The position numbers and the translations under genes are program-made. Of a stretch of DNA of 43,023 nucleotides, positions 1 through 43,023 are shown in pieces. The stretch lies in UHGV virus genome UHGV-0853564. The stretch is one strand, 5' to 3'. Position 1 is the stretch's first letter, and every line of letters starts with the position of its first letter. The stretch comes from a virus. The notes under the pieces are model-generated. The model did not search any database. It was not told the origin of the DNA and was given only the letters and a program-made list of their open reading frames with translations.

Positions 1-1824
1 AAACGCTTTATACGCGGTGGACGCCTCGCCGAATGCTGTTTTAGCATTAGCTGCCATATCACCAAAAGAGCTACCTAAAGCCTCGGCTCGCTTCGTGGCA
101 TACTGCTCATTGATAGCGTTAAGCGCCGCCTGATACTGTTCCTCGTTAATCAGCCCCTGTTCACGGTATTTATCGGCTACCGCCAGTTTCTGCTGTTCCT
201 GGATGTCGAGAAGCTCAAGTTCGGCGGCATTCTGACCCATAATCTGAGCCATGAAGTCGTCGCCTTTCTGCTGCTTTTCCCGCCGGTCTTTTCTTTTCTT
301 ATCCAGTTCTTCCTGTCTGGCCTGCTCAGCTGTGAGCATAATTTGAGTTTTGGCGTTTTCATACTGCTGCTGGCTTATCGTTCCGGCGCGGTTGAACTCC
401 TCCAGTTTCGCCAGTTTCTGTTCTTCTGCCGCCGTGATACGAGAAATTTCGTCTCCGGTTGTACGGTCAACCGTAGCGAGGAAATCTTCCGCCGCTTTTT
501 TCTGACGTTGTGCTGCCGTTTCTTCACGTTTGGCCTGCGCCGCCAGACGTTTCTCGTTTGATTTAGCCTCGCGGTCTGCCTTCGCTTTTTCGGTAGCGTC
601 GATGCGGGCGATGTCTTGCTGCGCTTCCGTGTCACGGGCGGCGTTATATGCGGCTATTTGTTCTTTGGTTACAGCTTCACGTTTAGCGAACGCTTGTTTA
701 TCCATCTCGGCTTGTGCCCGGATACGCTCACGGTCGCTTAAGATGGCGATTTGCTGATTCTTGACGATAGCTTCGTTCTGTTCCTGGAATCTCTGTGTGG
801 TTGAGTTGACGTTACGACCGAGATTCTTTTGAGCCTCCGCCGCGGCGTTTGCCGACTTCTCCGCGTTCTCCAGTGCCGTTGCGTTCTTGTTGGCATTGTC
901 AGTAAGGCGGATAAGTTCCGGGTTCAACTGTTTCGTGTTGCCTAGCCAGTCGGTGAACACATCGGCGATGCGGCGGGCGTTCTCCGCGGTCGGCTCTTTG
1001 TTAAACGCACTCTGCGCCGCTATCATCTCCAGCGCCTGGTCGCGGTTAACCCCGAACTTACTGCTAAGCTCCGCAATATTCTGCGCCAGCATGTTGACGC
1101 CTACGATATTACCCTCGTAAGTGCCGCCGAGTTTTTCTAACGTGTCGCCTACATCAGCGCCCTTAGATACCAATGCATCGTACTGGCTAATCGCCGATGC
1201 CGTGGATGCTTTCCACGTTTCCCACGATTCTGCGTCCTCACGCACGGCTTTAGCTGTTTGCTGTGCGATAAGGTCCGCGTTAGCCTTAGCCAAAGCAAGT
1301 TGAGTCTCCGCCGCTTCTCGGCTTATTTGGGTAAGCTGGATGAGGCCATCTGTCAGTTCGAGAGAGCCAGATGCCGTTTGCTGGAAGGTATCTTTTAACT
1401 GTTTCTGTGCGGCTTCGAGGTCTTTTGAACTGCCTTCTGCTTCGGTTAGCGATTTGTACAGGACACCGCCAATTGCTGATGCAAGAGCAATTACAGCCCC
1501 AAGCACCGCGCCACCGGGGCCGAAAGCACCCGCAAGCTGCGAACCTTGCTGACCGATTGCTACGAATGCAGACGTACCGGATTGCAACTGGACTACCATG
1601 TCCTGCACCTGGAAACCAACCTGACCGGCTGCATTGCGGAACTTGGCAAAACCGTCGGACGCTGCTTTAGAGGTGGCGGTGTTAACTTTATTAACATCCG
1701 GAGTTAGTTTGTTTACAGATGTGTCCGCCCGGTCTGCAGATGCCGCCATAGCGTCAAGCTGTTTGGCAGCGACGTCAGCCCCTTCAGTTTTTACTCTGGC
1801 GATTAGGGAAGCCGTATCAGCCAT
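1..1824 (-). CDS. tail tape measure protein, N-terminal 608 codons (continues in frame into 43023..42538)
   Basis: ATG at 1824..1822 with GAGGG-type RBS upstream; frame open to position 1; Ala/Gly-rich hydrophobic segment plus long Q/A/E/K-rich helical region; directly follows chaperone pair. Missing from ORF track because it is cut by the window edge. Confidence 0.8.
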   Translation of the reverse strand, partial: MADTASLIARVKTEGADVAAKQLDAMAASADRADTSVNKLTPDVNKVNTATSKAASDGFAKFRNAAGQVGFQVQDMVVQLQSGTSAFVAIGQQGSQLAGAFGPGGAVLGAVIALASAIGGVLYKSLTEAEGSSKDLEAAQKQLKDTFQQTASGSLELTDGLIQLTQISREAAETQLALAKANADLIAQQTAKAVREDAESWETWKASTASAISQYDALVSKGADVGDTLEKLGGTYEGNIVGVNMLAQNIAELSSKFGVNRDQALEMIAAQSAFNKEPTAENARRIADVFTDWLGNTKQLNPELIRLTDNANKNATALENAEKSANAAAEAQKNLGRNVNSTTQRFQEQNEAIVKNQQIAILSDRERIRAQAEMDKQAFAKREAVTKEQIAAYNAARDTEAQQDIARIDATEKAKADREAKSNEKRLAAQAKREETAAQRQKKAAEDFLATVDRTTGDEISRITAAEEQKLAKLEEFNRAGTISQQQYENAKTQIMLTAEQARQEELDKKRKDRREKQQKGDDFMAQIMGQNAAELELLDIQEQQKLAVADKYREQGLINEEQYQAALNAINEQYATKRAEALGSSFGDMAANAKTAFGEASTAYKAF

Positions 1825-2203
1825 CTTCTCTGCCCTCAAATATTCCGTCTAAGCCCATGATAACCTCGGCTTCGAACAAACTTATGCCGTAACCGGCGAC
1901 ATCGCGAAACGCTGCCAAATCTTGCCATTTGAGCGCATCGCGCGGGATTATAACGATAGTATCATCTGTTTCGCGCTGTAGGAATTTAATGGCACGGTAT
2001 TTCTCGAACACGTCGATAAGAGAAACGGGGCATTCTGGCCCCGTCGCTTCTTTCATCTGCGGTTCTTTAATCACGCCCATTGCAATCAAAGCCGCCTGGT
2101 GGCCCGCCGCAATGTCATCGAATTGCTTACGTTTGTGGCGGTCGACAAAGCACCATTGCGCAAATTCATACAGCGCTTTTACTTTTCCGAGAGTCTCTCC
2201 CGG
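1817..2203 (-). CDS. tail assembly chaperone -1 frame extension (gpT-like part of a G-T fusion)
   Basis: -1 frame relative to the 2179..2595 ORF is open from a TAG at ~2206..2204 down to the stop at 1817 and overlaps the tape measure start; classic G/G-T arrangement. Confidence 0.5.
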   Translation of the reverse strand, partial: PGETLGKVKALYEFAQWCFVDRHKRKQFDDIAAGHQAALIAMGVIKEPQMKEATGPECPVSLIDVFEKYRAIKFLQRETDDTIVIIPRDALKWQDLAAFRDVAGYGISLFEAEVIMGLDGIFEGREDG

Positions 2204-2595
2204 CTATCGGTGTGGTGCTTAACTACGGCTTCTGCCAACCCACTGTACTGGTCAAACAGGTTGGCCAGCGCCTCTTTGCTGAATGGTTCGTCGAATGACC
2301 AACCGGTGACGATTTCCACGGCGAGCTGCTTGTTCAGGTCCATAACCCTCCAGCCCTTCTCATCGTTATAGCGCGCCCAGTTATTAAGCGCCTCGCACTC
2401 TTTATCTAACGGAGCAAGTTCTTCCGTAAGGCGTCGAATTGCCGTTGTGTAGGCACGGCCTGCACGAACGCCAGCGTCACAATCGGGGCCGATGACCTGC
2501 AACCATTCGCCGGAGTCTTTACCACTCGGCAGAAGGATAGGCATTTTAGTGCCAGCAGCGTGGCGGTCGGCAAAATAAAAATCAGAAAGTTTCAT
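2179..2595 (-). CDS. tail assembly chaperone (gpG-like)
   Basis: 138-aa ORF immediately upstream of tape measure gene, ending in Lys codon AAG inside a GGAAAAG stretch. Confidence 0.65.
   Translation of the reverse strand: MKLSDFYFADRHAAGTKMPILLPSGKDSGEWLQVIGPDCDAGVRAGRAYTTAIRRLTEELAPLDKECEALNNWARYNDEKGWRVMDLNKQLAVEIVTGWSFDEPFSKEALANLFDQYSGLAEAVVKHHTDSRERLSEK
2182..2188 (-). other. candidate -1 ribosomal slippery site G GAA AAG at end of chaperone gene
   Basis: Minus-strand ...CTC TCG GAA AAG TAA; shifting -1 here gives GGA AAA GTA AAA GCG... which continues open to 1817. Confidence 0.4.
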
Positions 2596-2702
2596 TCTTT
2601 AATCCTTTGGTTAAGAGGTTACAGGTTAAGGTTGACGCGCCAGACGGGAACCACCCGCTTTTCGTGTGCGACACTAGGCGCAAACTTATTCTAGCACACT
2701 AC

Positions 2703-2734
2703 TTGCACACCCCAATATAATAGGGTACTATTCA
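2703..2734 (+). promoter_or_regulatory. promoter-like element TTGCAC-N17-TACTAT with internal TATAAT and AATAG-N4-CTATT dyad
   Basis: ttgcacaccccaatataatagggtactattca, ~25 nt upstream of ATG 2760; near-identical copies at 11659..11690 and (reverse) 22995..23026. Confidence 0.5.
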
Positions 2735-2759
2735 CCTGTAACCTACTGAGGAAACAATT

Positions 2760-3086
2760 ATGCGTAAATTAGTATTAGCTCTGGGGTTTATGTCTTTTGC
2801 TACTTTTGGGGGCCCGTGCGAACAGGTATTTAGTGAATCTGTTCTTATGGCTTCTGGTGTGCTCGATAAAGCCGACCCTACTATTGTAAAGGCATTTAAG
2901 GACTCTACAGTCCGTGAATGTGAGGCTGCCGTAGATGTCGGTAAATCAGGCCTACCTCCGCAGGCCGTAACATATACGGTAATACGTTCGGTAGAGAAAA
3001 ACGGGGACGCGTTTTACAGCCTACTGACAGCCACCCGTCTGCAAATGGTGATGACTGGCTGGGCGATAGGCGCGGAAAGTAAATAG
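2760..3086 (+). CDS. small secreted protein (N-terminal signal peptide), moron gene
   Basis: GAGGA RBS; N-terminus MRKLVLALGFMSFATFGG is signal-peptide-like; opposite strand to flanking tail genes; AT-richer than surroundings. Confidence 0.6.
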   Translation: MRKLVLALGFMSFATFGGPCEQVFSESVLMASGVLDKADPTIVKAFKDSTVRECEAAVDVGKSGLPPQAVTYTVIRSVEKNGDAFYSLLTATRLQMVMTGWAIGAESK

Positions 3087-3151
3087 TCGCCTTTATTTAA
3101 AGGAATCCACTGTGGTTAAATAGGACAAATCCTACACACGAGGACGTAAGC

Positions 3152-4282
3152 ATGGCCCGGAAGAAAATAACCGACGAACAGTTGCAGGAAGAATTGAACG
3201 CCGGTATGAAGAATATCGACATCGCCCGTAAATACGGCGTCTCAGACCGAGTTATTCGTATCCGTAAAGCGAAGCTGGCGAAGAAAGGCGTAGGTCACGG
3301 TCGTGACGTTAGCCATCTTGTGCCGGACGGCTACAAGATTAAAGGAACGTCGTCACTGGTGGACGAGTTCGGCAACACTAAGTTGCAATGGGTTAAGACC
3401 GACACCGACGCCGAACGTCAGGTCGAGTTGATGAAAGCCGTAATCGAGGGCATGAAGTCAGATATTACGCCAGTTGCGCCTGTTAAAGCCTCCCGCACCA
3501 AACGTGATGACAAGCTACTCAATCTTTACACGGTATCTGATTTCCATCTCGGTATGCTGGCCTGGGCCGACGAGAGCGGCGACGACTGGGACATGAAGAT
3601 TGCAGAGGACCTGTTCTCTCGATGGTTCGACGCAGCGTTTCAGAAAGCGCCGGACGCGGGAACGGGTGTTATTAACCTGCTAGGTGACCTTGCGCACTTC
3701 GACAGTCTGGATGCAGTTACGCCAGCGAGTGGTCACGTTCTTGACGCCGATACCCGCTACCAGAAACTTGTACGCTACATGATTCGCATGGTGCGACGTG
3801 TTGTTGATATGGCGCTGGTTAAGCATAAAAATGTTCGCTTGCTTATCGTGCAAGGGAACCACGACGAAAGCGGAATGATTTGGTTAGCTGAAATGTTCAG
3901 TACGCTATACGACAACGAGCCGCGTGTATTCGTCGATACGTCGCCGGATGTTTACAAGATGGTGCAACACGGCAAAACGACATTGTTCTTTACCCACGGA
4001 CATAAAGCGCGCTTCGACGCTATCGAACCGGTTATGATCGCCAAGTTCCGCAAAGCGTTTGGTGAGAGCGTTTACAGCTACGCCCACGTAGGCCACCTAC
4101 ACCATCAGAAGATTGTAGAAAGCCGTAATATGATTGTTGAGCAACACCGCACCTTAGCGGCGAAAGACGCCTACGCCTCTCGCGGTGGATGGATGTCGGG
4201 CCGGAGTGCAAATGTAATTACTTATAGCGCCGAATATGGCGAGGTTGCGCGTTTAACTATTTCACCGGAGATGCTGGGATGA
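3152..4282 (+). CDS. HTH domain fused to calcineurin-like metallophosphoesterase (SbcD/Mre11-like motif set)
   Basis: 376 aa; N-terminal HTH-like segment (NIDIARKYGVSDRVIRIRKAK); motifs SDFHLG, LLGDLAHFD, VQGNHDE, THGH, VGHLHH match metallophosphoesterase motifs I-VI; GAGGA RBS. Confidence 0.8.
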   Translation: MARKKITDEQLQEELNAGMKNIDIARKYGVSDRVIRIRKAKLAKKGVGHGRDVSHLVPDGYKIKGTSSLVDEFGNTKLQWVKTDTDAERQVELMKAVIEGMKSDITPVAPVKASRTKRDDKLLNLYTVSDFHLGMLAWADESGDDWDMKIAEDLFSRWFDAAFQKAPDAGTGVINLLGDLAHFDSLDAVTPASGHVLDADTRYQKLVRYMIRMVRRVVDMALVKHKNVRLLIVQGNHDESGMIWLAEMFSTLYDNEPRVFVDTSPDVYKMVQHGKTTLFFTHGHKARFDAIEPVMIAKFRKAFGESVYSYAHVGHLHHQKIVESRNMIVEQHRTLAAKDAYASRGGWMSGRSANVITYSAEYGEVARLTISPEMLG

Positions 4283-4509
4283 CTTCAAAATACAACCGCA
4301 CAATGACAAATACTCACGGCAGCACTATGACGGTAGACGTTTACGATGTGCTACGCGCCTTCGACATCCGCGACCCGGCATTACAGCACGCATTGAAGAA
4401 GCTGCTGTGTATGGGTCTTCGTGGGCACAAGGACACCGGAACCGACTTAGCGGAAGCAATTGAAAGTCTGGAGAAGTTACGGGAGTATCGAAGCAACATC
4501 GATGAATAA
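4279..4509 (+). CDS. hypothetical 76-aa protein, translationally coupled to the phosphoesterase gene
   Basis: ATGA stop-start overlap with upstream gene; followed by terminator hairpin. Confidence 0.5.
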   Translation: MTSKYNRTMTNTHGSTMTVDVYDVLRAFDIRDPALQHALKKLLCMGLRGHKDTGTDLAEAIESLEKLREYRSNIDE

Positions 4510-4515
4510 GAAAAA

Positions 4516-4531
4516 GGCCCCAAACGGGGCC
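4516..4531. terminator. bidirectional rho-independent terminator (GGCCCC-AAAC-GGGGCC)
   Basis: Perfect 6-bp GC stem with T-runs on both strands; sits between convergent genes 4279..4509 (+) and 4538..5710 (-); near-identical hairpin at 36816..36831. Confidence 0.65.
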
Positions 4532-4537
4532 TTAGTT

Positions 4538-5710
4538 TTATGCGTAGGTGATACGCTGGATAACGATAGACGACTGGTACTGGTTGCCTGTGGACTGCCC
4601 TTCTATACTTTGGGTAATTGATTCAGGGCCAGATATTTCTGGCGTAACCGCCGTAAGCTCTGCGCGTTTCAAACTGAAAGACATAGCCCCGTTTACCCCC
4701 GCCAGAATAGAGTTAATCTCTACCTGCTGTTCGTTGATAAACTTCTGAATCATAGCCATGTCATACAGCTTACCGGAGATGGAGAAGGTGTTAGCTGCGC
4801 GGCTACGTTCCACAAACGCAACGTTAGAGTTGCCGAGTTCGAACTGTGCGGACGCGCTGTTGTCGTTGGTGATGGTAAGGCTATCGCAACGCAACGGGGT
4901 AGAACCGTCGAACACAGAAACGTCGACCGAGGAGAACGGCTCATCAGTAAACGTAACAGAGGAGAAGTCAGAACCAGACGGCGGCGTCGCGAGAATCTCC
5001 TGGCTGCGCCCGATGAACGGGAAGCTGCCCGTTACCATCGCGTTAACGGCCTGCTCCACGGTAAAACCGGAAACTTCCACACCTTTGGTCAGTGTGTACG
5101 CGTCGGCCCCACCGCACTGGCCTTTGTACCAGGTGAGGATAGAGAACGTCTTACACGCGTTACCAGTTTCCAGTTTATCGCCGGTTTTAGCGTCGGTTGT
5201 TACGGTCTCGGTGGTCAGAGTATGTTGGATCCCAGCACCGGTGACAGCAGTCGCACTTACCTCGGTTACGATAAACGGTTTAGCGTTATCGCCCGTTAAG
5301 TCGGTAAACGCAATCAGGTCGCCTACTTCAACGCCATCCGTAATGAAGCTACCGTCGGCACGAGTGAACGTCTTGCCCGCCGGTGCGACGGTAATCGACA
5401 GCCCCGACAGAGAAACACCGGATTGCCACGTAGAGCCTAAAGCCCCCGCTAACCAGTCGTCCTGGCTTTTCGAACTAAGCTCGATAGCATATTCTCCGCT
5501 AACCTGCTTGTTACCGGTACGGATGGACGTAGTTTCACGGCTGCCGTCCAGTTCGTTGGAGGTCAGCGTGTCGCGGGTAATAGCGGGAACGCCACCTGTG
5601 TTGCGCAACGGCGACCATACCGGGTTAGTTGGTGTTACGCCCGGGGTGACTTCCGCCACATAGAATTGCGCGGTAGTCGCGCCCTTAAAAGGAGTTGTAG
5701 CCATATTCAC
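4538..5710 (-). CDS. putative major tail protein
   Basis: 390-aa ORF at the position of the tail tube gene (after neck genes, before chaperones), followed by strong terminator; assignment by synteny only. Confidence 0.5.
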   Translation of the reverse strand: MNMATTPFKGATTAQFYVAEVTPGVTPTNPVWSPLRNTGGVPAITRDTLTSNELDGSRETTSIRTGNKQVSGEYAIELSSKSQDDWLAGALGSTWQSGVSLSGLSITVAPAGKTFTRADGSFITDGVEVGDLIAFTDLTGDNAKPFIVTEVSATAVTGAGIQHTLTTETVTTDAKTGDKLETGNACKTFSILTWYKGQCGGADAYTLTKGVEVSGFTVEQAVNAMVTGSFPFIGRSQEILATPPSGSDFSSVTFTDEPFSSVDVSVFDGSTPLRCDSLTITNDNSASAQFELGNSNVAFVERSRAANTFSISGKLYDMAMIQKFINEQQVEINSILAGVNGAMSFSLKRAELTAVTPEISGPESITQSIEGQSTGNQYQSSIVIQRITYA

Positions 5711-8946: not shown

Positions 8947-8971
8947 TTAGGAATCCTCTTAGTAAATGAAA

Positions 8972-8991
8972 AGAGGGACCGAAGTCCCTCT
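8972..8991 (-). terminator. stem-loop AGAGGGAC-(UUCG)-GUCCCUCU after capsid gene
   Basis: Perfect 8-bp stem with UUCG tetraloop on minus transcript, between capsid and Ig-like genes. Confidence 0.4.
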
Positions 8992-9007
8992 CGATTATAG
9001 CTTAACC

Positions 9008-10057
9008 TTAAGCCCCGACACCAGTTACCAGGAAGGCAATCGGTACGTGCTTACGTTCAACCACACGGTTCCAGTTGGAGGCGTTCGCCAGGTCCTGCCA
9101 GGAAGCAGAACGTGCGACAGTCTCGGTGCCGTTGCCGGTGATTACCGCGCTGGTGAAGCTGTAGCCCAACGGATGCAACAGCCAGGTCTTACGGGTCCAC
9201 AGAGTTTCAACACCACCACCGTTGCCGCGGGACGCTTCGCGTTCATATTCCAGCGGGTTGGACGGAGAACCTTCACCGTAACCGATAGCGCCGTTTCCGA
9301 AGATGATGGAGATGAACTTACGACCACCGCCAGTACCAACTACGGTCATGCTGTCGTCAACAATCACACGGTAGCCCTGGTAGGTGGCGAACATGGTGTT
9401 GTTGTCAGCATCACGGATGTAGTCGATAAGCTGCTGCTTACGTGCCTGCGCATAAACAAAGCTGTGCATCGCGATAGCGCCCAGCACTTCACCGCCGTTA
9501 CCCATCAGAGCATCACCCATAGTCTGGGTAGCGTCAATGAATGCGCCGGAATCGAAGCCAAGAGTGGCGGACACGTCGATAACCATGTCGTTCTGCTCGT
9601 GGTAAGCATCGGTAGCAGCTACGTTGTCGTTGTACAGACCGAGCGCGGTGGCAATCAGACGGCGTTGTGCCTGACGTTGCCAGAAGTTATCCAGACGGGA
9701 CGCTACGGATTGCAGCGGATTCTGGCTGGTCAGTTCGACAGTCAAATCCGCCTGACCAAAACCTTCGTTCAGGTAGGCAACACGGGCCATCATCTCGCCG
9801 GTTTGCACGTTACGCGGGGTAGCGATGTCCTGATACACATCGTTCGAGCAGTTTGGCTCGATAGACGTATCAATCGCTTTCCAGAAAGGAATATTAGCGA
9901 CATTGGACGGACCGCGAGCAATCTCAGCGGCGTACGGAGTCGGGGTCAGAATACCGGACTGGAAGAACGCGGTTTTTTCTACCGGGTCCTCTGTCATATA
10001 AGACGCCAGGACCGGGATGTTGCCAGTTACGATATCGCCGATAGTGGTAATTGCCAT
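9008..10057 (-). CDS. major capsid protein
   Basis: 349-aa ORF immediately downstream of scaffold-like gene and followed by hairpin; size and synteny typical of HK97-fold capsid gene. Confidence 0.7.
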   Translation of the reverse strand: MAITTIGDIVTGNIPVLASYMTEDPVEKTAFFQSGILTPTPYAAEIARGPSNVANIPFWKAIDTSIEPNCSNDVYQDIATPRNVQTGEMMARVAYLNEGFGQADLTVELTSQNPLQSVASRLDNFWQRQAQRRLIATALGLYNDNVAATDAYHEQNDMVIDVSATLGFDSGAFIDATQTMGDALMGNGGEVLGAIAMHSFVYAQARKQQLIDYIRDADNNTMFATYQGYRVIVDDSMTVVGTGGGRKFISIIFGNGAIGYGEGSPSNPLEYEREASRGNGGGVETLWTRKTWLLHPLGYSFTSAVITGNGTETVARSASWQDLANASNWNRVVERKHVPIAFLVTGVGA

Positions 10058-10059
10058 TA

Positions 10060-11658: not shown

Positions 11659-11690
11659 TTGCGCACCCCAATATAATAGGGTACTATTCA
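11659..11690 (+). promoter_or_regulatory. promoter-like element TTGCGC-N17-TACTAT (copy of 2703..2734)
   Basis: ttgcgcaccccaatataatagggtactattca, ~24 nt upstream of ATG 11714. Confidence 0.5.
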
Positions 11691-11713: not shown

Positions 11714-11938
11714 ATGCCGATTAGATTTACAAATCAAAAGAAGTCTAGAGATGTACGCCCCGGAGAAAAGGTGCAGGTATTTGACGAGTGGTACTGGGTT
11801 CGTTACATAGATTATCTTGGTGGTAAAAAGCTAAATTTACGTTTGCAGCACGAAAATGAGCCTCTTAGCCCGTTCTATGAAAACGATAAAATAGTCATAA
11901 CCATGCCCGATGATTTGGTGATAGACGTGGAAGTTTAA
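11714..11938 (+). CDS. hypothetical 74-aa protein, moron gene
   Basis: AGGAGG RBS; own promoter-like element and terminator; opposite strand to flanking structural genes; AT-rich. Confidence 0.55.
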   Translation: MPIRFTNQKKSRDVRPGEKVQVFDEWYWVRYIDYLGGKKLNLRLQHENEPLSPFYENDKIVITMPDDLVIDVEV

Positions 11939-13540: not shown

Positions 13541-15022
13541 TTACTGCTGAGTTGGGTCTTGCTGCTGTGCCGACTGCGGGATTTCGCCTGCTACCGGAGC
13601 AACAGCACCCAACGGCAGCGGCGCGTCTTCGATAGCGTTCTGAATGTCCTCGTCTGTCCAGTCAGTTACGCCGGCCTTACGCAACGCAGCATAATAAGCG
13701 GTGGCAGGTAGCAGGCCTGCGTTAATATCCGCCATCCACTGAGCGCGGTCCTGAGCGGTCATCGGTTGCAGGAAGAACTCCATGTTCAGTTTGAACTCAA
13801 TCTCTGTGCCTTCACGCAGCCCAAGCATCGCCGCCGCCCAGCGCAACGAATCGGTGTACGCCATGCTTACGTTACGTGCAATTGTCGCCATAACGGACGT
13901 ATCGGCACCACGTTGCAGGCGGGCCGATTCTGCGGTGATTTGCTGCGTCGGGGTGATAAGCTGCGCACCAATCTGGATTGCCTGATTCTCTTTATCCAGC
14001 ATATTCTGCTTGGCAAGGTTGTTCTCTCCTGCCTGAACCAGAAACGCGTTTCCGCCGTACCCGATGTTATGGCCTGAACGCGACCCCATGCGAACGCCGT
14101 GCGGGTTAGCCTCTTTCCACTGTTCCATGCTCATATTCTCGCCAGGAGCAATGAACAGAGTTGGCTGGCCTACAACGAAGCTGGACTCCTCATTGTCTGC
14201 GCTGTTGCGGAAATGCCCGATATTAAGCTCAGCCAACGGTAGCAAAGGTGCATCGTCGATAGTAGCGTCGTTGTTGCTCGCCCCGATGAACGTGAACGGG
14301 ATTTTGCCGCGTAACTGTCCCCCGAGTTCCGGGAATATTTCGATTACTTGGTCCTGTGCACCCCCTTCGGCATCGAAGCGGTAAATGCGCTGGCGGTAGC
14401 GCCCGTCAATCAAATCAAGAACGCGGTATTGCTCACCGAACTTTGTTTCGAACTCTGCGCCCGGTTCCGAGTATTCCCATACCTCACGCAACACGACCAT
14501 AGTCACTCGGTTAACTGAGCCAACGCGAGTCAATCGCCAGTTGATGATGTTCTCTGCGGTATAGAATGCGATGACCGGGTTTAATAATCCCGCGTTCTGT
14601 TCGGCTGCCGTTGCCGCAGCAGTCTCCGGGGCATCAACCAGCAACCCGCCACGGCCAACCGAGTCAATTTCCATTAGCGTATCCTGCGCGTGCTGCCACA
14701 GCCCGACACCGGAACCGTCGGCGTTGCGTAACAGGTACTCCAGTTCAGGCGGGATAATCTGCTCGGGGTCTTTGCGCATGACACTGCCGACCATTCCCGC
14801 CAGGGTACGTTTTGTGAAGTTGTAGCAGATAGCGCCGTTCTCGTATTCTTCCTGGCGCTGGGCCGCGTAGGTCGGGTCAGGCTCGTTCTTCCCGACGTTG
14901 CGCAGGTAACGGATGAGGTCGCCTTCCAGAGCGTGTCGCACCTTCTGCCATTTATCGAAGTGATGCAGCCATTCCCGGTGTTTTGTCTTAACACCCTGAT
15001 TCTGACCGTTCATAGTTAACAT
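13541..15022 (-). CDS. portal protein
   Basis: 493-aa ORF directly downstream of large terminase and upstream of Mu-F-like gene; acidic C-terminus. Confidence 0.7.
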   Translation of the reverse strand: MLTMNGQNQGVKTKHREWLHHFDKWQKVRHALEGDLIRYLRNVGKNEPDPTYAAQRQEEYENGAICYNFTKRTLAGMVGSVMRKDPEQIIPPELEYLLRNADGSGVGLWQHAQDTLMEIDSVGRGGLLVDAPETAAATAAEQNAGLLNPVIAFYTAENIINWRLTRVGSVNRVTMVVLREVWEYSEPGAEFETKFGEQYRVLDLIDGRYRQRIYRFDAEGGAQDQVIEIFPELGGQLRGKIPFTFIGASNNDATIDDAPLLPLAELNIGHFRNSADNEESSFVVGQPTLFIAPGENMSMEQWKEANPHGVRMGSRSGHNIGYGGNAFLVQAGENNLAKQNMLDKENQAIQIGAQLITPTQQITAESARLQRGADTSVMATIARNVSMAYTDSLRWAAAMLGLREGTEIEFKLNMEFFLQPMTAQDRAQWMADINAGLLPATAYYAALRKAGVTDWTDEDIQNAIEDAPLPLGAVAPVAGEIPQSAQQQDPTQQ

Positions 15023-15034: not shown

Positions 15035-16306
15035 TTAAAGTGCGAAAGTCACCGGGACGTTAATAACTGGTTTGCGAATCGGCATTTCATACGCGATAGG
15101 GTATGTGGTTCCATCATTCTGGTGGTCCACACCACCTGATTTATCCGGTTCGCCGTTTTTGTCGTAAGCCTGTTGCTCAAGGCATCGCGCCGTAACCGGG
15201 CAAGCCTGCTCGTTAATCATGACCATACCAGATTCAAGCGCCTTGTTCATTGCTGATACGCGGTCTTTAACCGGCGGGTTTGTTGATTTGGCGCGTACTT
15301 CGAAACCAGCCTGCTGTAACTGAGCGATGTCCGAGGTGCTGGCATTATTACTTTTACGGTTTTTGCCGCTGGCGTCCGGGTACATAACGATATAGTGGCC
15401 TTTACTTTTCCACCTCTCAGTTATGGCTCGCACTACGTCAGGCGTATCGAACATATCAACCAACTCGGCAACAGCATGCCAGACTTTACCACGTTGCACG
15501 TAAACTGTACTCGCCATGTGACCTACGTTAAAGTCCTGCCCGATATACAGAGTCTCGCCAGGTTTGATTGTTTCGCGACTGCTGTTTTTCCTGCGGTCGT
15601 AAGCATAGTAGACCGTTCCAGCCGTGAGGTTTACGAACTCGCCGTTGATGTAGGCGTCAATCAATTGCCCCGGGTAGGTGTCGCGCAATGACTGCACATA
15701 ATCTTCTGGCAGGAACGGGTTAGACAGGGTGGACGCCTGAATCATCTCATAGCCAGGATTCTTTTTGACCACCCAGCGGTCATGTACAAAACGGAATCCT
15801 TCCGGCGTAGTGAACACGGAAACGGTATTAGCCGGTTTTGGCGTAATAGGCTTATACGTCCGCGGCAACTGGCGGTTACGGGCGATGACTTTGTTCCACG
15901 CGTGCTCGGCGTGTTCCATGTTAAGAGTGTCCAACTCGTCGATTTTTGCACGAAACGATTCGTAACCGACGATTCGTGCTGGATTATCGAGTGTACGCAG
16001 GACAAAATCACCGAATTGTCCGGATGACGTATAGATTATGTTGTCGGACTTGTTGTATTTGTACCTCACGCCCCAGTCGGTGAGTTTTTCTTCCATACGA
16101 GGTGCAAGGATAAGGCGCACCAGGTCATAAGTCGGCTCGTACATGGCGATGATAGAATCGCTACCGCCTTCCATGCTGTCGAGCAGTGCTGAGTTGCACA
16201 TAACTTCGGATTTACCGGTACCAAATCCCGCTACGAAGGCGGGGAACTTGCAGTGCATACCGAGAAACGCGCCTTGCGGTTCTGTCGCCGTGATATTAAC
16301 GTTCAC
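15035..16306 (-). CDS. terminase large subunit
   Basis: Walker A-like FVAGFGTGKSEVM near N-terminus; nuclease-type acidic motifs (IGQDFNVG, MYPDASG) C-terminally; track start is GTG. Confidence 0.8.
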   Translation of the reverse strand: MNVNITATEPQGAFLGMHCKFPAFVAGFGTGKSEVMCNSALLDSMEGGSDSIIAMYEPTYDLVRLILAPRMEEKLTDWGVRYKYNKSDNIIYTSSGQFGDFVLRTLDNPARIVGYESFRAKIDELDTLNMEHAEHAWNKVIARNRQLPRTYKPITPKPANTVSVFTTPEGFRFVHDRWVVKKNPGYEMIQASTLSNPFLPEDYVQSLRDTYPGQLIDAYINGEFVNLTAGTVYYAYDRRKNSSRETIKPGETLYIGQDFNVGHMASTVYVQRGKVWHAVAELVDMFDTPDVVRAITERWKSKGHYIVMYPDASGKNRKSNNASTSDIAQLQQAGFEVRAKSTNPPVKDRVSAMNKALESGMVMINEQACPVTARCLEQQAYDKNGEPDKSGGVDHQNDGTTYPIAYEMPIRKPVINVPVTFAL

Positions 16307-16805
16307 CGGGCACCACCTTAATTGTTACTTCACTGATTGGCTCGTCGCGTACTTCTTCGGTGGCAACAGTTTTATTCAGCCCCAGCTTAGCTGCGGCAAA
16401 CGTAGCAGAGATACCCGCGGCCCCTGTCTCGGTGAAATACGCCTCTTCCAGTGCCTGTGCTGTCTCCCAGGCTTCTGCAAATGCGGGAATCTCGCGCAGC
16501 CACAGCTTAATAATCGGGATAGTGACGCCGATGTGCAGGGCAAAGCGGGCCAGCGACGGTGGTTTGTCCTGAATCAGCGGGCGTTCGTCACCCTTAGACG
16601 TAGGCACAAGCTCCCATGACGTGCGGTCAAAGAAACGAATCAATTCGTCGCAATAGTCCGGGTCCCACAACGCGGCGGAATTACGGGATGATTGATAAAG
16701 GCTCTGTTTACCGCGCGGTCGTTTACGGCGACGGTTTGCGCTAACAGCTTCTTCATGTGCAGCTTGCACCACCTCTGGCGATGGCTGCTTGAGTTTCAGC
16801 TTCAT
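16296..16805 (-). CDS. putative terminase small subunit
   Basis: Overlaps large terminase start; internal ATG (MKLKLKQ...) with AAGGGG RBS preferred over track start 16844. Confidence 0.5.
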   Translation of the reverse strand: MKLKLKQPSPEVVQAAHEEAVSANRRRKRPRGKQSLYQSSRNSAALWDPDYCDELIRFFDRTSWELVPTSKGDERPLIQDKPPSLARFALHIGVTIPIIKLWLREIPAFAEAWETAQALEEAYFTETGAAGISATFAAAKLGLNKTVATEEVRDEPISEVTIKVVPGER

Positions 16806-16903
16806 AGAATCCCCTTGCATATGCGTCTGACCATCAGAGCGCATCAGACGCGCCCTACGCGTCTAAAGGGATTATATAAGGGGATTGGGCGGGATGTACA
16901 GAA

Positions 16904-33261: not shown

Positions 33262-33579
33262 ATGAGTACGCCTGAGGGGCGCGTGCAGAAATATGCAAAA
33301 GAGCGATTCGAGGCCCTCGGTGGCCTCGTTCGAAAACTTTCCTACGAGGGTCGCTCTGGCGCTCCTGACCTGCTGGTAATTCTCCCCGGCGGAATCATCT
33401 GGTTCGTCGAGGTTAAGAAAGACGAAAACACGAAGCCAGACCCGCACCAGTTACGGGAGCATGGGCGGATGCGTAAACGTGGTGCAAATGTTTTTGTAGT
33501 TGGTTCGATAAAACAGGTTGACACCTTAATAGCGGACTATTATAGTAAGCGCATACCCCAACAATATAAGGAATTATAA
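33262..33579 (+). CDS. VRR-NUC domain nuclease
   Basis: GAPDLLVILPGGIIWFVEVKK matches VRR-NUC PD-(D/E)XK signature. Confidence 0.6.
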   Translation: MSTPEGRVQKYAKERFEALGGLVRKLSYEGRSGAPDLLVILPGGIIWFVEVKKDENTKPDPHQLREHGRMRKRGANVFVVGSIKQVDTLIADYYSKRIPQQYKEL

Positions 33580-33580
33580 A

Positions 33581-36675: not shown

Positions 36676-36809
36676 ACATAATAGCCCCGATTCCGGCATT
36701 GCAAAAACGTATCAAGGAACTCGAAGAGGAGGTTCTACGACTACGGCAACAGAGAGATGCCGCTAATGCGCAACTGGCGTTTATACTGGAGAAGTTATTA
36801 GAAGAGTAG
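36672..36809 (+). CDS. small coiled-coil protein (45 aa)
   Basis: ATGA overlap with upstream gene; followed directly by terminator. Confidence 0.3.
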   Translation: MNIIAPIPALQKRIKELEEEVLRLRQQRDAANAQLAFILEKLLEE

Positions 36810-36815
36810 AGAAAA

Positions 36816-36831
36816 GGCCCCGAAAGGGGCC
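36816..36831. terminator. bidirectional terminator GGCCCC-GAAA-GGGGCC
   Basis: Near-identical to hairpin at 4516..4531; between convergent rightward module and tailspike gene. Confidence 0.65.
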
Positions 36832-36837
36832 TTAGTT

Positions 36838-38595
36838 TTATGCAAGCCTTGTAACACTAAAAGAAAATGCGCTTGCTATGCCTGCACCGCTGACAGTGTT
36901 CCTAAGTGTAACCCTGAAGCTGGTTGTACTGCTATATATAACATCACAACTCACGGAATCAGGGGCTGATATTGGCGTTATCTGCACCACATAACCATTA
37001 GTAGATGTGGCTAATTGCTGAGAAAATGTCACATCATAAACACCTGTAGCTACCATGTTTACTGAGGATACACCCGGTGCTACATCAATACTGCCATTAG
37101 CGTTAATTCTCCCTGAACGAGGAATGCCGCCAGAGGAAATTGACGCTGCTTTACTTGTTTCTTCCATGAACGTGCAACCTATGTCTATAAACTCAACGTT
37201 ACCTACCGCGTGCCAATATGGTCGCGATACGTCAGGCACGTAACCGGCGACACTCTGGAATGTCGTCCCGTTGAGAATGACTGTTAATTTCCCTCCACCA
37301 GAAGAAGTAGCTAAAATGTTGTAGGTAGTGTACGCCGTACCACTAACCCGATGGAAGTTTCCGCCATTGATAACCAACGTTACTGGACGTGAGCCTGCGT
37401 TGTCGATTAATAAGTCTGCCTTCCCGGAGTTAGCCTCAAAATATGGGTTATTTAGCACTACGGCGCCAGAGCCGTTTAGTCCGTTGACCGCTATATTCAT
37501 TCCTCCGGTGGAATCGCTTCCAGCAATACCATTACCCTCACATGTAAGGCTATTGATAGTTGTTCCGGCGCCCCAGCGGTCCCCTAAAATGCCCCATCGT
37601 GTATTGCCGCTGGCGGTTAATCTGTTGACAGTGATTGCATTAAGTTCTGACCATTCACTGGAGTTAAGTATGCGCCAGCCAATACTGTTACCCTCTAAGT
37701 ACACATTATCCAATTCAGAAGTTAATACAGCGTCTGTTCGTAAACCTTCGCCGTTGGTATGTCCGTAAGATACTATGTTCTCTAACTTGGTGTATGCTTT
37801 ATCGGTTACGAGAAGACCGTAAGACGTTGCTGAGCCTTTTAGCGTAATATTCCCGAGATAATCATAAGCATGTATTCGTTGGGTTGCTCCGACAGTATCC
37901 CCTAGCATCTTCAAGTTAAAATCAGCAACCTGACAGTTAAAGATAGTCTCCGCCATATTCTCGCCCTCGTAATGAGCGCGAACACCAGGAGAGCCTATAA
38001 ATGCGGCGTCGTAGTTTCCATAATCGAGTACCAGCGCCGACGTTACATCATAAACACCTTGTTTAATTTTTAATGCGCCGCCGAGATGCCAGTTAGTTAA
38101 CGGATTCTGGAACATGTCACCGTCAATACGGCTTATAGCATCCCTCACCGCTTCCGTAGTGCTGTACGCAACAAGGTCCGCACCCAAACCATCGTCCGGG
38201 TTTGCCAGGTCATTCCGTAAATTCGGGTCAGTCTGCGGCTCCCAGTCAGCATTACCCACCGGGTTAAACGATGCGGGGACAACAACCGGCAACGTACCCG
38301 CATACGAGTACCATGTTTTGCTAACCGGGTCATAAACTACTTTATCCCGGTCGTCGACAGCTAGTGTTCCGCCAGTGGAAAAGTCCCATGACACGGGAGA
38401 AAACCCAGCATCACGCAACACAGCGGGTAGCGTCTTCTGAGTCTGCCCTGTAACCTGGTTTGTCGCGTAATCAATATCGGCCCCACCAGCTACGCCACCG
38501 GATTTACCAGTGATAACTTCAGCTTCGAAAATCTGGTGTTTTTTTGCGGTCTGTAAGTCCGCCAGGCTTAAAACGTCACCGCATCCGCTTGACAT
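36838..38595 (-). CDS. tailspike / tail fiber with beta-helix-like repeats (candidate depolymerase)
   Basis: 585 aa, Gly/Asn/Thr/Ser-rich repeats typical of right-handed beta-helix tailspikes; last gene of tail operon. Confidence 0.55.
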   Translation of the reverse strand: MSSGCGDVLSLADLQTAKKHQIFEAEVITGKSGGVAGGADIDYATNQVTGQTQKTLPAVLRDAGFSPVSWDFSTGGTLAVDDRDKVVYDPVSKTWYSYAGTLPVVVPASFNPVGNADWEPQTDPNLRNDLANPDDGLGADLVAYSTTEAVRDAISRIDGDMFQNPLTNWHLGGALKIKQGVYDVTSALVLDYGNYDAAFIGSPGVRAHYEGENMAETIFNCQVADFNLKMLGDTVGATQRIHAYDYLGNITLKGSATSYGLLVTDKAYTKLENIVSYGHTNGEGLRTDAVLTSELDNVYLEGNSIGWRILNSSEWSELNAITVNRLTASGNTRWGILGDRWGAGTTINSLTCEGNGIAGSDSTGGMNIAVNGLNGSGAVVLNNPYFEANSGKADLLIDNAGSRPVTLVINGGNFHRVSGTAYTTYNILATSSGGGKLTVILNGTTFQSVAGYVPDVSRPYWHAVGNVEFIDIGCTFMEETSKAASISSGGIPRSGRINANGSIDVAPGVSSVNMVATGVYDVTFSQQLATSTNGYVVQITPISAPDSVSCDVIYSSTTSFRVTLRNTVSGAGIASAFSFSVTRLA

Positions 38596-38607: not shown

Positions 38608-41175
38608 TTAACTAAAACCATTGCTGAATCCGTCGGAGAAACCGCTGCCGTATGGCGCGGCGCCGTCGTATTTGTAGAAATCCGCTTCGTAGTTAATCCC
38701 GGTAATCTTGACCGTGCGGTCGTCACCAGGGTCAACTGTAGAAACAAGAATCATCTGAGCATTATGCCTTGCTTCGTTGCCGAATGAAAACTCAGTTTTT
38801 AGTGCACTATTACCTGTGTAAATTGCTTCCTGCGGTGCCGATAGCATAACTACTTCGCGGTCGTGACTTCCCGGCGCTACTGCAACACTCTGAACTCCGC
38901 CATCTCGCTTCTTAAGAATCAATGAGTGGTCGTCTCCGGGGGTAAACGTAACAGGTTGTGATAGCGTCAGTGCAAGCCCATTAACGGCAACAACATAGCC
39001 ATCTTGCGGGGCCATACGCGAACCTTTTACCACACTTACCGCACGCCCAGGCATTGCAAAAATACCTTCTTCTGCCGCTGTGAATGATACAGTCACCTTC
39101 TTCAACAGGTTTTTCTGGTAGCGGCGGTATGCGGCCCAGTATGCCTGCTTATAGTTACGGATGCCTTTAGAGTCATACGTTTCGGTATTAACCCCACCTT
39201 CTGCTGGTATGCTAATAGTCTCTTTGACGTTAGTATCTGGGTCGATGTAGGAGAATTTGAGACTATCGTATACCTGAGCGTCGTTGAATGTGCGTGTCCA
39301 CTTCTCCGAAGCTGTGGTTTTGCTACGATGCGTGAACACCATCTCGGGCCCCATGCGAGGGCGTTCGAAATCCAGAAGAATATCGGCACCTCTACGGTAT
39401 GGGGTGCAGAAAATTGCCTCCGCTATCGTAGCTACTATGTCCTGCATAGTAGTTTTGTAATCATCGAATGTGTAGCAGAATTGCCCTGCCTCGGCGTTCC
39501 CGAAATAACTTTCAATCTCAGCCTGTGTGGCCAGCAACTTATCCATGTTAGCCGTGGTGAGATTGAGGTTTCCTACAACCGGGTCGCGAGCAAGCCGTAT
39601 CAGGGACTGCACTGCCTGTGTATTAGGTGTCATAACTGTATCAAAAACACCGTTGCCCAGGTACTTGTACACCATCTCGGTAGCGACCATGCGCAATTGA
39701 GGCTGTTTAACCTCCGCGGCTCGTGGTGTCTGCTTACGAGCGGAATGTACTGTTGTACGGTTGCCGTAGTGCGGCGTACGGTCTATCGATTGCCCGTATA
39801 GGTTTGCGTATGTAACCTCGTCAACCACTGTACCCTCGAAATCAAGGTCCAGATTAGTAACGCGGCGCATACGCACGCGTACTTTAGACGGCGCGGGGAG
39901 ATCGGCGTATATTGTGACGCCAGTGTAATCCTGGCTACGGCCTGTAACTGTTCCTTGTTTTGTGTACACCGGGCCGTACGGTTGCCCCTCGGCATCCAGT
40001 AACTGGTATTGCATTTCGACAATGACAGATGCCCGTGTTTTATTCTCGCCGTTGTCCTTGTACATGCCGTTTGCCGCAGCAACGTTAGTTACCACTCGTT
40101 CTACGTTTATGCGGTTGATATAAGCCCAGTCTGTAAGGCTGGCATTATAGGTATCCTGCGGCCCAATCAGATGTTTACCCTGAACGTTATCTATGGGGTA
40201 CGCTGTTGTCCCTATTAAATTCCATTGTGTCTGGTTGTTAGAAATATCAACTACCAGGGTAGTGTCACTAACAGAAATAACCGGGTAATAACCGGAAAGA
40301 TTTACCTCACCGCCAAGGCCGCCAGGAGTAGTATCCGCAAACACTCCATCAAAGAATGCTATTTGACCAACAGAAAGAACATCATAGAATCCTGCGTCCG
40401 GTCCGGTAACTGTGCCAGTTGAACCAGAGCGCTGTACGGTGAATAACCCAACATTAACCTGTACGTCATTCTGGGCTTTAAGTACTACGCCGTCTACTTC
40501 GTTTGACGATACAGTGATGTAAAGCCCTTGGTCGATAGGGTCGCCGATGCGTAGTTGCGGCGTGCTAGTGTTATTTGGCGACGTGAACGGTGCGTATATT
40601 TCTACCGAAGTGCCCGTGATTTCTTGTACCCGAGTGTCGCCGTCGGTAACATCTTCTGGCTTGATGTCCAAATATCCTCTACCAGCATCGTAGTAGCCGT
40701 ATTCAACGACCGTACCGGATGCGTTAAACACCTTATAGGTGGTCATGAGGTCATTAGGAATAGTCTGCACCCGGCCGCAGATGTCATAAGTTCGCTCGTA
40801 AGGGCGAGCCTTGTTATTTCGGTCTGTCAGACTGTTGTTCGGTGAGTCCGCTTGCTGGTTAGCGAGATTGTTAGACGCGCCCCTCGTTGACGGTGTGAGT
40901 AATTTAGCTAGCGGTTTAAGGATGATGCTAAATACTTTCATCACGCCTTTGACTACCCCACCACCAGCACCCTCCAGGACGTGAAAAACGGCATCCTGTT
41001 TTAAGGCGTCAAAATCTTCTGTTACGTCGTTATCCTCCCCTATCTCTTCGAGGAAAACGCGAAACGGCACACCATCAGGGATATGGTTTACGACGAAATT
41101 CAGCGGCGAGTCATTATGCCGTTTTTGTGTGAATGTCCCGTCTTCGTTGCGGGTGTAGTGGATGACTATCGCCAA
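38608..41175 (-). CDS. central tail fiber / host specificity protein (gpJ-like)
   Basis: 855-aa ORF following K-like gene, lambda-type tail-tip order. Confidence 0.6.
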   Translation of the reverse strand: MAIVIHYTRNEDGTFTQKRHNDSPLNFVVNHIPDGVPFRVFLEEIGEDNDVTEDFDALKQDAVFHVLEGAGGGVVKGVMKVFSIILKPLAKLLTPSTRGASNNLANQQADSPNNSLTDRNNKARPYERTYDICGRVQTIPNDLMTTYKVFNASGTVVEYGYYDAGRGYLDIKPEDVTDGDTRVQEITGTSVEIYAPFTSPNNTSTPQLRIGDPIDQGLYITVSSNEVDGVVLKAQNDVQVNVGLFTVQRSGSTGTVTGPDAGFYDVLSVGQIAFFDGVFADTTPGGLGGEVNLSGYYPVISVSDTTLVVDISNNQTQWNLIGTTAYPIDNVQGKHLIGPQDTYNASLTDWAYINRINVERVVTNVAAANGMYKDNGENKTRASVIVEMQYQLLDAEGQPYGPVYTKQGTVTGRSQDYTGVTIYADLPAPSKVRVRMRRVTNLDLDFEGTVVDEVTYANLYGQSIDRTPHYGNRTTVHSARKQTPRAAEVKQPQLRMVATEMVYKYLGNGVFDTVMTPNTQAVQSLIRLARDPVVGNLNLTTANMDKLLATQAEIESYFGNAEAGQFCYTFDDYKTTMQDIVATIAEAIFCTPYRRGADILLDFERPRMGPEMVFTHRSKTTASEKWTRTFNDAQVYDSLKFSYIDPDTNVKETISIPAEGGVNTETYDSKGIRNYKQAYWAAYRRYQKNLLKKVTVSFTAAEEGIFAMPGRAVSVVKGSRMAPQDGYVVAVNGLALTLSQPVTFTPGDDHSLILKKRDGGVQSVAVAPGSHDREVVMLSAPQEAIYTGNSALKTEFSFGNEARHNAQMILVSTVDPGDDRTVKITGINYEADFYKYDGAAPYGSGFSDGFSNGFS

Positions 41176-41531
41176 AATTCAATCTCCTGATATGTGTCAC
41201 GTAAATCGTCCAGTCGGTCAAGGCGCACTTGTCTGGACGCTAACTCGCAGTGGCTTACCATACCGTCATAATACACGCCAGCGTGCCACACTACACGTCC
41301 TCTGTGATAAGTACCAAGCAACACCGCATCATAATTCTGCGGACTGGCGGCGCGTTCCAGACCTTTAGGGTTGGAGTGGCCCGCGTCAAACGCCGCGTCT
41401 ATCGCCGTCGGGGAGGTTACGTCGAAAGTCGGGGTAGATAGTCCAACATCACCGCGCACCCTGCGCACGTGATGCCAACAATTGTAACGACGGAAGTCAT
41501 AAGGGAGGCCAGTATAGGCAGTGATACTCAT
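41166..41531 (-). CDS. tail assembly protein, NlpC/P60-like (gpK-like)
   Basis: YNCWHHVRRV contains Cys-His pair typical of NlpC/P60 fold; internal ATG 41531 with ATGA overlap preferred over track start. Confidence 0.5.
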   Translation of the reverse strand: MSITAYTGLPYDFRRYNCWHHVRRVRGDVGLSTPTFDVTSPTAIDAAFDAGHSNPKGLERAASPQNYDAVLLGTYHRGRVVWHAGVYYDGMVSHCELASRQVRLDRLDDLRDTYQEIEFWR

Positions 41532-42058
41532 GACAAAAGTACCCCACGCAGCAGCGGAATTTCTTCTGGCGTCATCAGGATTCCTGTCTGCCGTTGGTTG
41601 AGCATAGGCGTTCCTGTCTCTGCGGTGAACACGCCTTTTTCTTGCGTCAACGTCTGCAACTCGTATACCACAGGGCCATCGCACGGGTACGACAGGTCAG
41701 TGCTTACATAACGGCGGAATATAAATTTTGGTAACTCTGTGTTGCTGTACGGGATGCGGTCCATCTCTTCATCGAGAATGTTAAGAACATCCGGCAGTGA
41801 GAATGAAGCTGTCTGGTCCATGTCATTATTGTTCGCGGCGTTCTTGGCGTCCATAGGGGTTGCTTCGAACGTAACGGTTTCGCCAGTCTCAAGCGTAGCG
41901 GTAAGGTCAGACGTCCCGCGCACGAGCAACCACCGCTTTGAGAGAAGCGGGTGCGTTATTTCAAGAGTAATGTAATCCAGTTCGCCGTCTGGGTTAGACG
42001 CCAGTTTACGACGATATGCGGCTTCTACTGATTCCTGGCTCATTGCATTGGGCCCCAA
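41528..42058 (-). CDS. minor tail protein (gpL-like)
   Basis: Position between M-like and K-like genes. Confidence 0.5.
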   Translation of the reverse strand: MGPNAMSQESVEAAYRRKLASNPDGELDYITLEITHPLLSKRWLLVRGTSDLTATLETGETVTFEATPMDAKNAANNNDMDQTASFSLPDVLNILDEEMDRIPYSNTELPKFIFRRYVSTDLSYPCDGPVVYELQTLTQEKGVFTAETGTPMLNQRQTGILMTPEEIPLLRGVLLS

Positions 42059-42534
42059 ATACGTGGAAACGTTGATTGCGCGGTTCCGTATGCTTTAAGG
42101 AATCCGCCTAAGCAATCCCCATAACAGCCGAACAAATCCGGTAGATTCTTAGTAAGACATGTATCTTCCTGAATCACTGTTCGCTCCGCCGTAGCGGTGA
42201 ACGTGATTACCCAGTTCTTGCCATCGTCGGTGCTGTCGCTAATCGTCGACGTGATGAGTATCTGGTGGTCCTCGATACCCATACCTGTATCATGCGGCAT
42301 GATAAACGAGGACGCCCCTCCATCGATGTTGTTCAGGAAGCTATAAAACGCCTGACGCCCGAGAGAAGACACGACAAGCGTTACACTAATCGGCACTGGC
42401 TCAAAGTACGTGTCTCGCCCCTGACGAGGTAATCCACCCTGAACCTCAGTGCGCCAGATATTACTCCCCCTGGTCTGGGAGTACCCCTTCGACACTATAG
42501 GTCGAAGGGACATAGGGAATCTTAAAGAAGACAT
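42040..42534 (-). CDS. minor tail protein (gpM-like)
   Basis: KGYSQTRG...VSVTLVV...FYSFLNNIDGGASSFIMP resembles lambda gpM pattern; first gene after tape measure stop. Confidence 0.5.
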   Translation of the reverse strand: MSSLRFPMSLRPIVSKGYSQTRGSNIWRTEVQGGLPRQGRDTYFEPVPISVTLVVSSLGRQAFYSFLNNIDGGASSFIMPHDTGMGIEDHQILITSTISDSTDDGKNWVITFTATAERTVIQEDTCLTKNLPDLFGCYGDCLGGFLKAYGTAQSTFPRIWGPMQ

Positions 42535-42537
42535 AGT

Positions 42538-43023
42538 TTAATACCCCGGCTGACCGCGAGTAGAGCGGCGAGCTTTAGAAATCGGTGAGTTGTTATCCTG
42601 TAACTGTGACGCTACTGTTTCACTGATTATAATACGTAACCGCCCCTCGTCGTCACGCTCGGTAACGGCAGAATCGACGCGTCCGGTGGTGTTGTTGACT
42701 ATGGTGACGTTATCACCGCCGGACTGGCCGCCGTTTTGTCCCATGATTTCTTTCATCTGCTGCGCGGTGCGCACACGCGATGCACCCGCAGGCATGATAA
42801 CTTCTGGCTTACCACGTTCCGCTATAGTTGACATCTGGCCTGCTGATAACTGCCCGCCCTGTTCACGCGCCGAGCGAATCTTGGCGATATTAGCCAGCCC
42901 CGCAGCTACTGCCGTTGCTGCGGCTACAGGAGCCAGGAATGGGCCGACAACAGGGATAGCAGCCGTTGACTTATACGCCTCAATAGCGGAGGTGTATGTT
43001 GCGATAGTGGCCTGGGCAATAGC
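42538..43023 (-). CDS. tail tape measure protein, C-terminal 161 codons (in frame with 1824..1)
   Basis: Frame open from window end to stop at 42538; hydrophobic segment AAIPVVGPFLAPVAAATAVAAGLANIA; track reports only the 98 aa from an internal Met. Confidence 0.7.
   Translation of the reverse strand, partial: AIAQATIATYTSAIEAYKSTAAIPVVGPFLAPVAAATAVAAGLANIAKIRSAREQGGQLSAGQMSTIAERGKPEVIMPAGASRVRTAQQMKEIMGQNGGQSGGDNVTIVNNTTGRVDSAVTERDDEGRLRIIISETVASQLQDNNSPISKARRSTRGQPGY

Follow-up and report, generated by a model that had tools for sequence, protein, structure and literature searches.

The virus genome UHGV-0853564 is presented as a linear sequence of 43,023 bp (hereafter the window, meaning the whole stretch of DNA that was analysed), and both of its edges fall inside a minus-strand gene for a tail tape-measure protein, which raises the question of whether the viral DNA ends within this structural gene or whether a circular sequence was opened there. 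We found that the first and last bases of the window are neighbours in an unbroken sequence. The window very probably represents a complete genome unit of a virulent Escherichia coli siphophage of the Kagunavirus group (Guernseyvirinae), packaged by headfuls, assembled as a circle, and opened at an arbitrary point that happens to lie inside the tape-measure gene.

Continuity of the tape-measure gene across the window edges

Translation of the reverse complement of positions 1–1824 (1,824 nt) gave 608 codons, from the ATG at 1824 down to base 1, without a stop and with M as the first residue, exactly as a first-pass annotation of the window had read it. At the other edge, the minus strand from 43023 to 42538 (486 nt) comprises 161 codons and a stop (TAA at 42540–42538), and these make up the 162 in-register codons that the same annotation had counted. 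Both segments are divisible by three, and concatenation of the window end with the window start yielded a single open reading frame (ORF) of 2,310 nt, encoding 769 amino acids with one terminal stop. The check proposed in that annotation, end-to-start translation, thus revealed neither an internal stop nor a frame break at the junction, and its predicted tape-measure protein of about 769 residues proved to have the length of its counterparts in the related phages SZH-1 and phiSD1. Only the zero-offset join is open: with 1 or 2 bases taken out there, the frame meets a stop at codon 640 or codon 621. A search for an exact direct repeat shared by the window ends (a terminal repeat, for example, or an assembler overlap left untrimmed) was negative.

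The join was also examined in related sequences. A 1,400-nt junction query, made of the last 700 and the first 700 nt of the window, aligned as a single piece over at least 80% of its length to 11 phage records, and in phiSD1 query positions 1–1400 corresponded to exactly 1,400 bases. By local BLAST, the window junction 43023/1 (the slash marking the join, here and below) corresponded to phiSD1 2847/2846; in SZH-1, window positions 43023 and 2 corresponded to 26702 and 26704, leaving 26703 for window position 1. Within a 300-nt stretch centred on the join, there were no gaps against either phage, and phiSD1 is identical through the join (GCAATAGC/AAACGC). The sequence expected across the 43023/1 join is ...GGGCAATAGCAAACGCTTT..., and a 20-mer spanning it occurred internally in four independent IMG/VR contigs, one of which was ungapped across the join; a 38-nt exact junction pattern gave no matches in IMG/VR.

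The two halves of the gene, codons 1–608 (1..1824, minus strand, 92.6% nucleotide identity to the SZH-1 tape-measure gene) and codons 609–769 with the stop (42538..43023, minus strand, in register with the first), combine into a recognisable whole. Residues 1–764 of the joined protein aligned with positions 1–811 of the 811 positions of the tape-measure family phrog_1538 (E = 2.7e-196), whereas no Pfam family matched the joined protein. The tape-measure genes of SZH-1 (26217–28526) and phiSD1 (1023–3332) are uninterrupted, each with 2,310 nt and 769 codons for amino acids, and global alignment of the joined protein showed 762 of 769 residues identical to SZH-1 (99.1%) and 756 of 769 to phiSD1 (98.3%), with no gaps in either case. 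Such agreement between the joined halves and an intact gene product is far beyond chance. Because amino-acid identity reaches 98–99% against a DNA identity of about 92%, most differences in the gene are synonymous, and the reading frame has therefore been under purifying selection right through the join. The hydrophobic segments expected in both halves were located at residues 96–127 and 627–657, the latter encoded in the 3′ part, so that they flank the join between residues 608 and 609. The gene lies between those for the tail assembly chaperones and those for distal tail proteins. In replicating DNA, the tape-measure protein would be the ordinary 769-residue product of an uninterrupted gene.

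One complete genome unit and its point of opening

The window holds the genome once and in full, and its map is circular. Its length lies within the range of about 41–45 kb of the genus Kagunavirus, and it is a collinear rotation of the genomes of SZH-1 (ON391668, a record marked circular) and phiSD1 (PQ571306), with which local BLAST gave ordered chains of high-scoring segment pairs round the full circle; since it is thus a collinear circular permutation of Kagunavirus genomes, it amounts to one whole unit. Read in the direction of rising window coordinates, the alignment covers SZH-1 from 26704 to 43969, passes over the end of that record to its first base, and goes on as far as 26702. The modules occur once each and in order: chaperones, major tail protein, connectors, capsid, portal (13541..15022, minus strand; phrog_145, E = 3.8e-149, and PF13264), terminases, lysis, early genes, replication, tailspike and tail tip. 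The same gene order round the whole circle was seen in the Kagunavirus relatives (SZH-1, phiSD1, EF2-1, K1G/K1H and the BASEL phages Bas70–76), which have genomes of 42–45 kb, share about 90–92% nucleotide identity with the window over most structural and replication genes and encode tape-measure proteins of 769 residues that are 98–99% identical to that of the window; they differ from it in the tailspike C-terminus and in part of the J-like tail-tip gene. As far as the edges are concerned, the point of linearisation is the only difference.

These results bear on the idea that the window was cut from a prophage or some larger replicon and that its two ends match in frame by coincidence. In favour of this idea, chance alone would put a third of random joins in register. 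Against it, one half encodes the N-terminal and the other the C-terminal part of the same protein family, their combined length is exactly that expected, no gaps occur, and every module of a 42–44 kb Kagunavirus genome is present once and in order. We rejected this explanation, which is next to impossible for a collinear rotation of related genomes with a gap-free junction.

How close the relatives are was judged on the first 25 kb, where they show about 90% nucleotide identity over 64–81% of the sequence, so that the genus-level mark of about 70% is approached or exceeded on that part only, with synteny kept. No near-identical genome was present in a phage collection of August 2025, the best match being EF2-1, about 90% identical across roughly 81% of the first 25 kb. 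On these sequence comparisons, the phage probably constitutes a distinct species within or next to Kagunavirus.

The point at which such genomes are opened varies from record to record, the tape-measure gene being found at positions from about 1 kb to about 36 kb and on either strand. The authors of the BASEL collection stated that they open circular contigs where the terminase gene or operon begins, at its first base (PMC11990801). Indeed, the records of the BASEL Kagunavirus members Bas72, Bas75 and Bas76 begin at the base matching window 16843/16844, that is, at the ATG of the small terminase gene, and re-opening the window at 16844 as the reverse complement restored an intact tape-measure gene at 15021–17330. 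The 'linear, complete' GenBank record of phiSD1 (PQ571306) carries an exact 141-nt direct repeat at 1–141 and 41932–42072; this is most likely an untrimmed assembler overlap, in which case the unit length would be 41,931 bp.

Could the window edges nevertheless be genuine virion termini, the gene being restored after circularisation or concatemer formation? Nothing specific speaks for this, although interruption is formally possible for a late gene and a minority of headful molecules would end here by chance. The edges carry no terminal repeat and no overhang-like feature, and they abut without the redundancy that recircularisation needs when cohesive ends are lacking. Moreover, the coding sequence at the junction is unremarkable and highly conserved, with no interruption in any relative, and the records of the relatives are opened at many other points. 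Genuine termini at the edges are accordingly scarcely credible. It is also very unlikely that the break inside the tape-measure gene reflects a real discontinuity in the read data, for example, a preferred end of a packaging series or a pac-like cut in a structural gene, and the evidence does not support such an origin. The window edges are thus a bookkeeping artefact rather than real DNA ends, their position is arbitrary, and they carry no biological information on DNA termini.

This outcome is a routine consequence of assembling and depositing permuted phage genomes, already known and scientifically minor. It has practical weight for annotation: linear gene callers miss or truncate the tape-measure gene, giving two fragments, and in the linear ORF listing of the window neither half appears as a complete gene. 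To keep the tape-measure gene from being split, the sequence needs to be handled as a circle or given a new start at the small terminase gene.

Terminase type and mode of DNA packaging

If the edges are not ends, how is the DNA packaged? The small terminase gene (16296..16844, minus strand, with its ATG at 16844; phrog_3064, E = 7e-75) is followed by that of a large terminase (TerL) of the Jerseyvirus type (15035..16306 as the maximal ORF, minus strand), which matched the Pfam families Terminase_6N and Terminase_6C; its Pfam matches included no terminase family of the lambda or HK97 type. In tblastn comparisons, TerL showed amino-acid identities of 99.8% to that of EM1, 88.7% to Kenya-K49 and about 87–89% to the Jerseyviruses SETP3, SE2 and SETP7, in contrast to about 54% to the Kagunavirus members M01 and phiEc4, from which the window differs in carrying this Jerseyvirus-like variant. 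DNA similarity to SZH-1 and phiSD1, otherwise the closest genomes, is lost over 15677–16377. Taken with the low TerL identity to other Kagunavirus members, this loss indicates that the packaging module (15035–16844) is, as judged from the alignments, mosaic within the genus. If it is read as a Jerseyvirus-type terminase on a Kagunavirus backbone, packaging modules would have been swapped between the two genera.

Packaging of the relatives has been characterised to different depths. For Jerseyviruses, PhageTerm assigned a 'P1-like headful' mode, the EcoRV pattern fitted a circular map, pulsed-field gel electrophoresis gave a broad band, and headful packaging with pac initiation was concluded (PMC10783031). 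Jerseyvirus genomes have been noted as permuted (PMC10608910), and they assemble as circles (PMC10783031, PMC10608910). For Shashou, a Guernseyvirinae-like phage, a pac site was predicted (PMC6776780). The TerL clade of K1G/K1H adjoins that of headful packagers, and their genomes had been circularised on the basis of mapped reads (PMC5582158). In the Kagunavirus fBC-Eco01, PhageTerm found no termini (PMC9825357). A narrow literature search turned up no paper pairing Kagunavirus with headful packaging. The window phage resembles the Salmonella Jerseyviruses (SETP3, SE2 and the Kenyan MT1 phages) in subfamily, in genome size class and in a TerL that is 87–89% identical; it differs from them in genus and host, its own packaging mode being assigned by homology. 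By these pairwise TerL identities, the window falls in with a genus for which headful packaging was concluded (PMC10783031).

The proximity of TerL to the Jerseyvirus terminases, together with the literature on relatives, makes the packaging of concatemers by headfuls the most likely mode, and headful (pac) packaging by this phage is accordingly graded here as likely on the strength of sequence homology. With its Jerseyvirus-type terminase, the phage would replicate its DNA as concatemers and package it by headfuls, each virion taking up a little over one genome length of DNA whose ends are permuted and terminally redundant. From a permuted population of this kind, shotgun reads would assemble into a circle without a natural break, and the assembler or depositor would then have cut the circle where the contig happened to start. 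Virion DNA would have no single pair of ends, only a packaging-initiation (pac) site, and some virions would by chance end inside the tape-measure gene.

The presumed mechanism is that of P22, SPP1 and P1, which have circularly permuted, terminally redundant chromosomes: the concatemer is cut first at pac and then by capacity-triggered cuts, and the genetic map is circular with no unique ends. The TerL of the window differs from the enzymes of these phages in having no detectable sequence similarity to any solved terminase structure, and the comparison with solved structures gave no direct link to the P22, Sf6 or T4 terminases.

The first-pass annotation had concluded that the window is a circularly closed genome and that the true ends, cos or pac, lie elsewhere. 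Circular closure applies to the map and assembly and to the DNA while it replicates; in the virion, the DNA is almost certainly a linear molecule. The ends are indeed not at the edges, yet under the pac mode suggested by the terminase type and the literature on relatives, a search at other places would meet no single defined pair of ends.

The alternative that this annotation left open is that fixed ends exist at another place, either cohesive or in the form of short exact direct terminal repeats, and that the circle arose from annealed or ligated cos ends, from concatemer reads or from a collapsed repeat. Exact closure and completeness are equally compatible with this, and an assembly that closes into a circle is consistent with headful packaging without being specific to it. 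A cos site is also spoken of in the text of the fBC-Eco01 paper, as a generic mention of cos recognition made despite its own PhageTerm result (PMC9825357). On the other side stand the absence of lambda-type and HK97-type cos terminase families from the Pfam matches of TerL, its nearly 89% identity to the terminases of experimentally headful Jerseyviruses, the lack of fixed termini in the PhageTerm analysis of a Kagunavirus along with the pac prediction in a Guernseyvirinae-like phage, and the lack of any long direct repeat (an uncollapsed terminal repeat) anywhere in the window. Fixed ends elsewhere are therefore unlikely.

Besides the mention of cos, a few points weigh against headful packaging of a permuted genome as the explanation. 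The permutation and terminal redundancy of this particular genome are inferred from its sequence relationships, and so is its pac site, which was not located, the region upstream of the small terminase gene having been scanned for promoters and terminators only. The link of TerL to the P22, SPP1 and P1 enzymes would depend on published phylogenies, there being no structure match. Finally, Kenya-K49 may lie outside the cluster around K47 on which the experiments were done.

Neighbouring tail genes and other features of the genome

Upstream of the tape-measure gene, the first-pass annotation had placed tail chaperones, and this assignment was borne out by family matches. The analogue of lambda G (2179..2595, minus strand, 138 residues) matched positions 1–138 of the 259 positions of phrog_15027 (E = 2.4e-65) and Pfam Phage_TAC_4. 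The analogue of lambda T, an extension in the −1 frame (1817..2203, minus strand), matched positions 170–259 of the same family and Pfam Phage_TAC_18; its frame is open from 2203, the listed ORF covering 1817–2089, and it overlaps the tape-measure ATG by 8 nt. The two chaperone frames overlap by 25 nt (window 2179–2203), ending in G GAA AAG TAA. When a −1 slip on AAG was modelled, the resulting 259-residue fusion matched phrog_15027 from position 1 to 259 of 259 in one stretch, with 446.7 bits. A canonical X XXY YYZ heptamer was sought in the 25-nt overlap and none was found, only G GAA AAG (2182..2188, minus strand; A AAG lysine codon context) directly before the chaperone stop codon, which the frame geometry marks as a candidate −1 slip site. 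A programmed −1 frameshift of the G/GT type at this non-canonical candidate site is thus likely, as far as the frames and the family profile indicate. The arrangement resembles the lambda G/GT/H system in that the tape-measure gene is immediately preceded by two chaperone ORFs, of which the second uses the −1 frame, and in that the fused product in this window fits one family profile end to end. It differs in its slip site (G GAA AAG versus the canonical G GGA AAG of lambda), the frameshift being putative only, and in the lack of sequence homology between these chaperones and lambda G/T. In the annotation of the relatives, the second chaperone ORF is entered on its own as a 'hypothetical protein'.

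Downstream of the tape-measure gene, all on the minus strand, are genes at the positions of lambda M, L, K and J. The first encodes a distal tail or virion structural protein at the M position (42040..42534; phrog_384, E = 2.2e-37), for which no Pfam match at all was obtained. It is followed by a minor tail protein of the DUF1833 family at the L position (maximal ORF 41528..42058; phrog_396, E = 2.5e-53; PF08875) and by another at the K position (maximal ORF 41166..41684; phrog_329, E = 8.9e-14, over residues 30–172). The K-position gene of the relatives has 366 nt, and the true start in the window is therefore probably further downstream within 41166..41684. The large J-like tail-tip protein (38608..41175) matched phrog_469 (E = 1.7e-249) and phrog_31, 'central tail fiber J' (E = 3.8e-22), and showed weak PDB matches to the tail protein gp14 of 9occ (5.8e-16) and to 9e7m, the lambda-type 'Tip attachment protein J' (E = 4e-4). 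The proteins at the M, L and K positions had no sequence match in the PDB and no Pfam match to the lambda M, L or K families. Thus, of the M/L/K/J-like designation in the first-pass annotation, J was substantiated by phrog_31 and 9e7m, whereas the M, L and K labels are positional, reflecting position and size, their products belonging to generic minor-tail or virion families.

The tailspike gene (36838..38595, minus strand) follows, with a match to phrog_17420 (E = 6.4e-206) that includes the C-terminal part of the protein. Two regions had no nucleotide match in the nearest relatives, namely, 36841–38413, covering most of the tailspike gene with its C-terminal part, and 39806–40464 in the middle of the J-like gene. 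This pattern of divergence suggests that a receptor-binding module may have been exchanged.

A conserved element of 32–34 nt, TTGCACACCCCAATATAATAGGGTACTATTCA, with a perfect TATAAT inside, occurs on the plus strand at 2702–2735, 11659–11690 and 33549–33580 and on the minus strand at 22994–23027 and 26557–26584. Four copies (2703, 11659, 33549 and 26557) directly precede the leading ORF of a gene block on their own strand, and the one at 22994 has a comparable location; by sequence and position, the set looks like a family of phage promoters. Between convergent gene blocks, at 4501–4543, 11930–11972 and 36801–36843, there are related GC-rich hairpins (GGCCCC-N4-GGGGCC) flanked by A/T runs, and they probably act as intrinsic terminators in both directions. 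A search of the whole window for tRNA genes gave none. An ORF of 551 codons at 8966–10621 on the plus strand, antisense to the major capsid and scaffold genes, was considered as an overlapping gene and rejected, as it is not conserved: the corresponding stop-free stretch has 341 codons in SZH-1 and 216 in phiSD1, and the ORF is very probably spurious.

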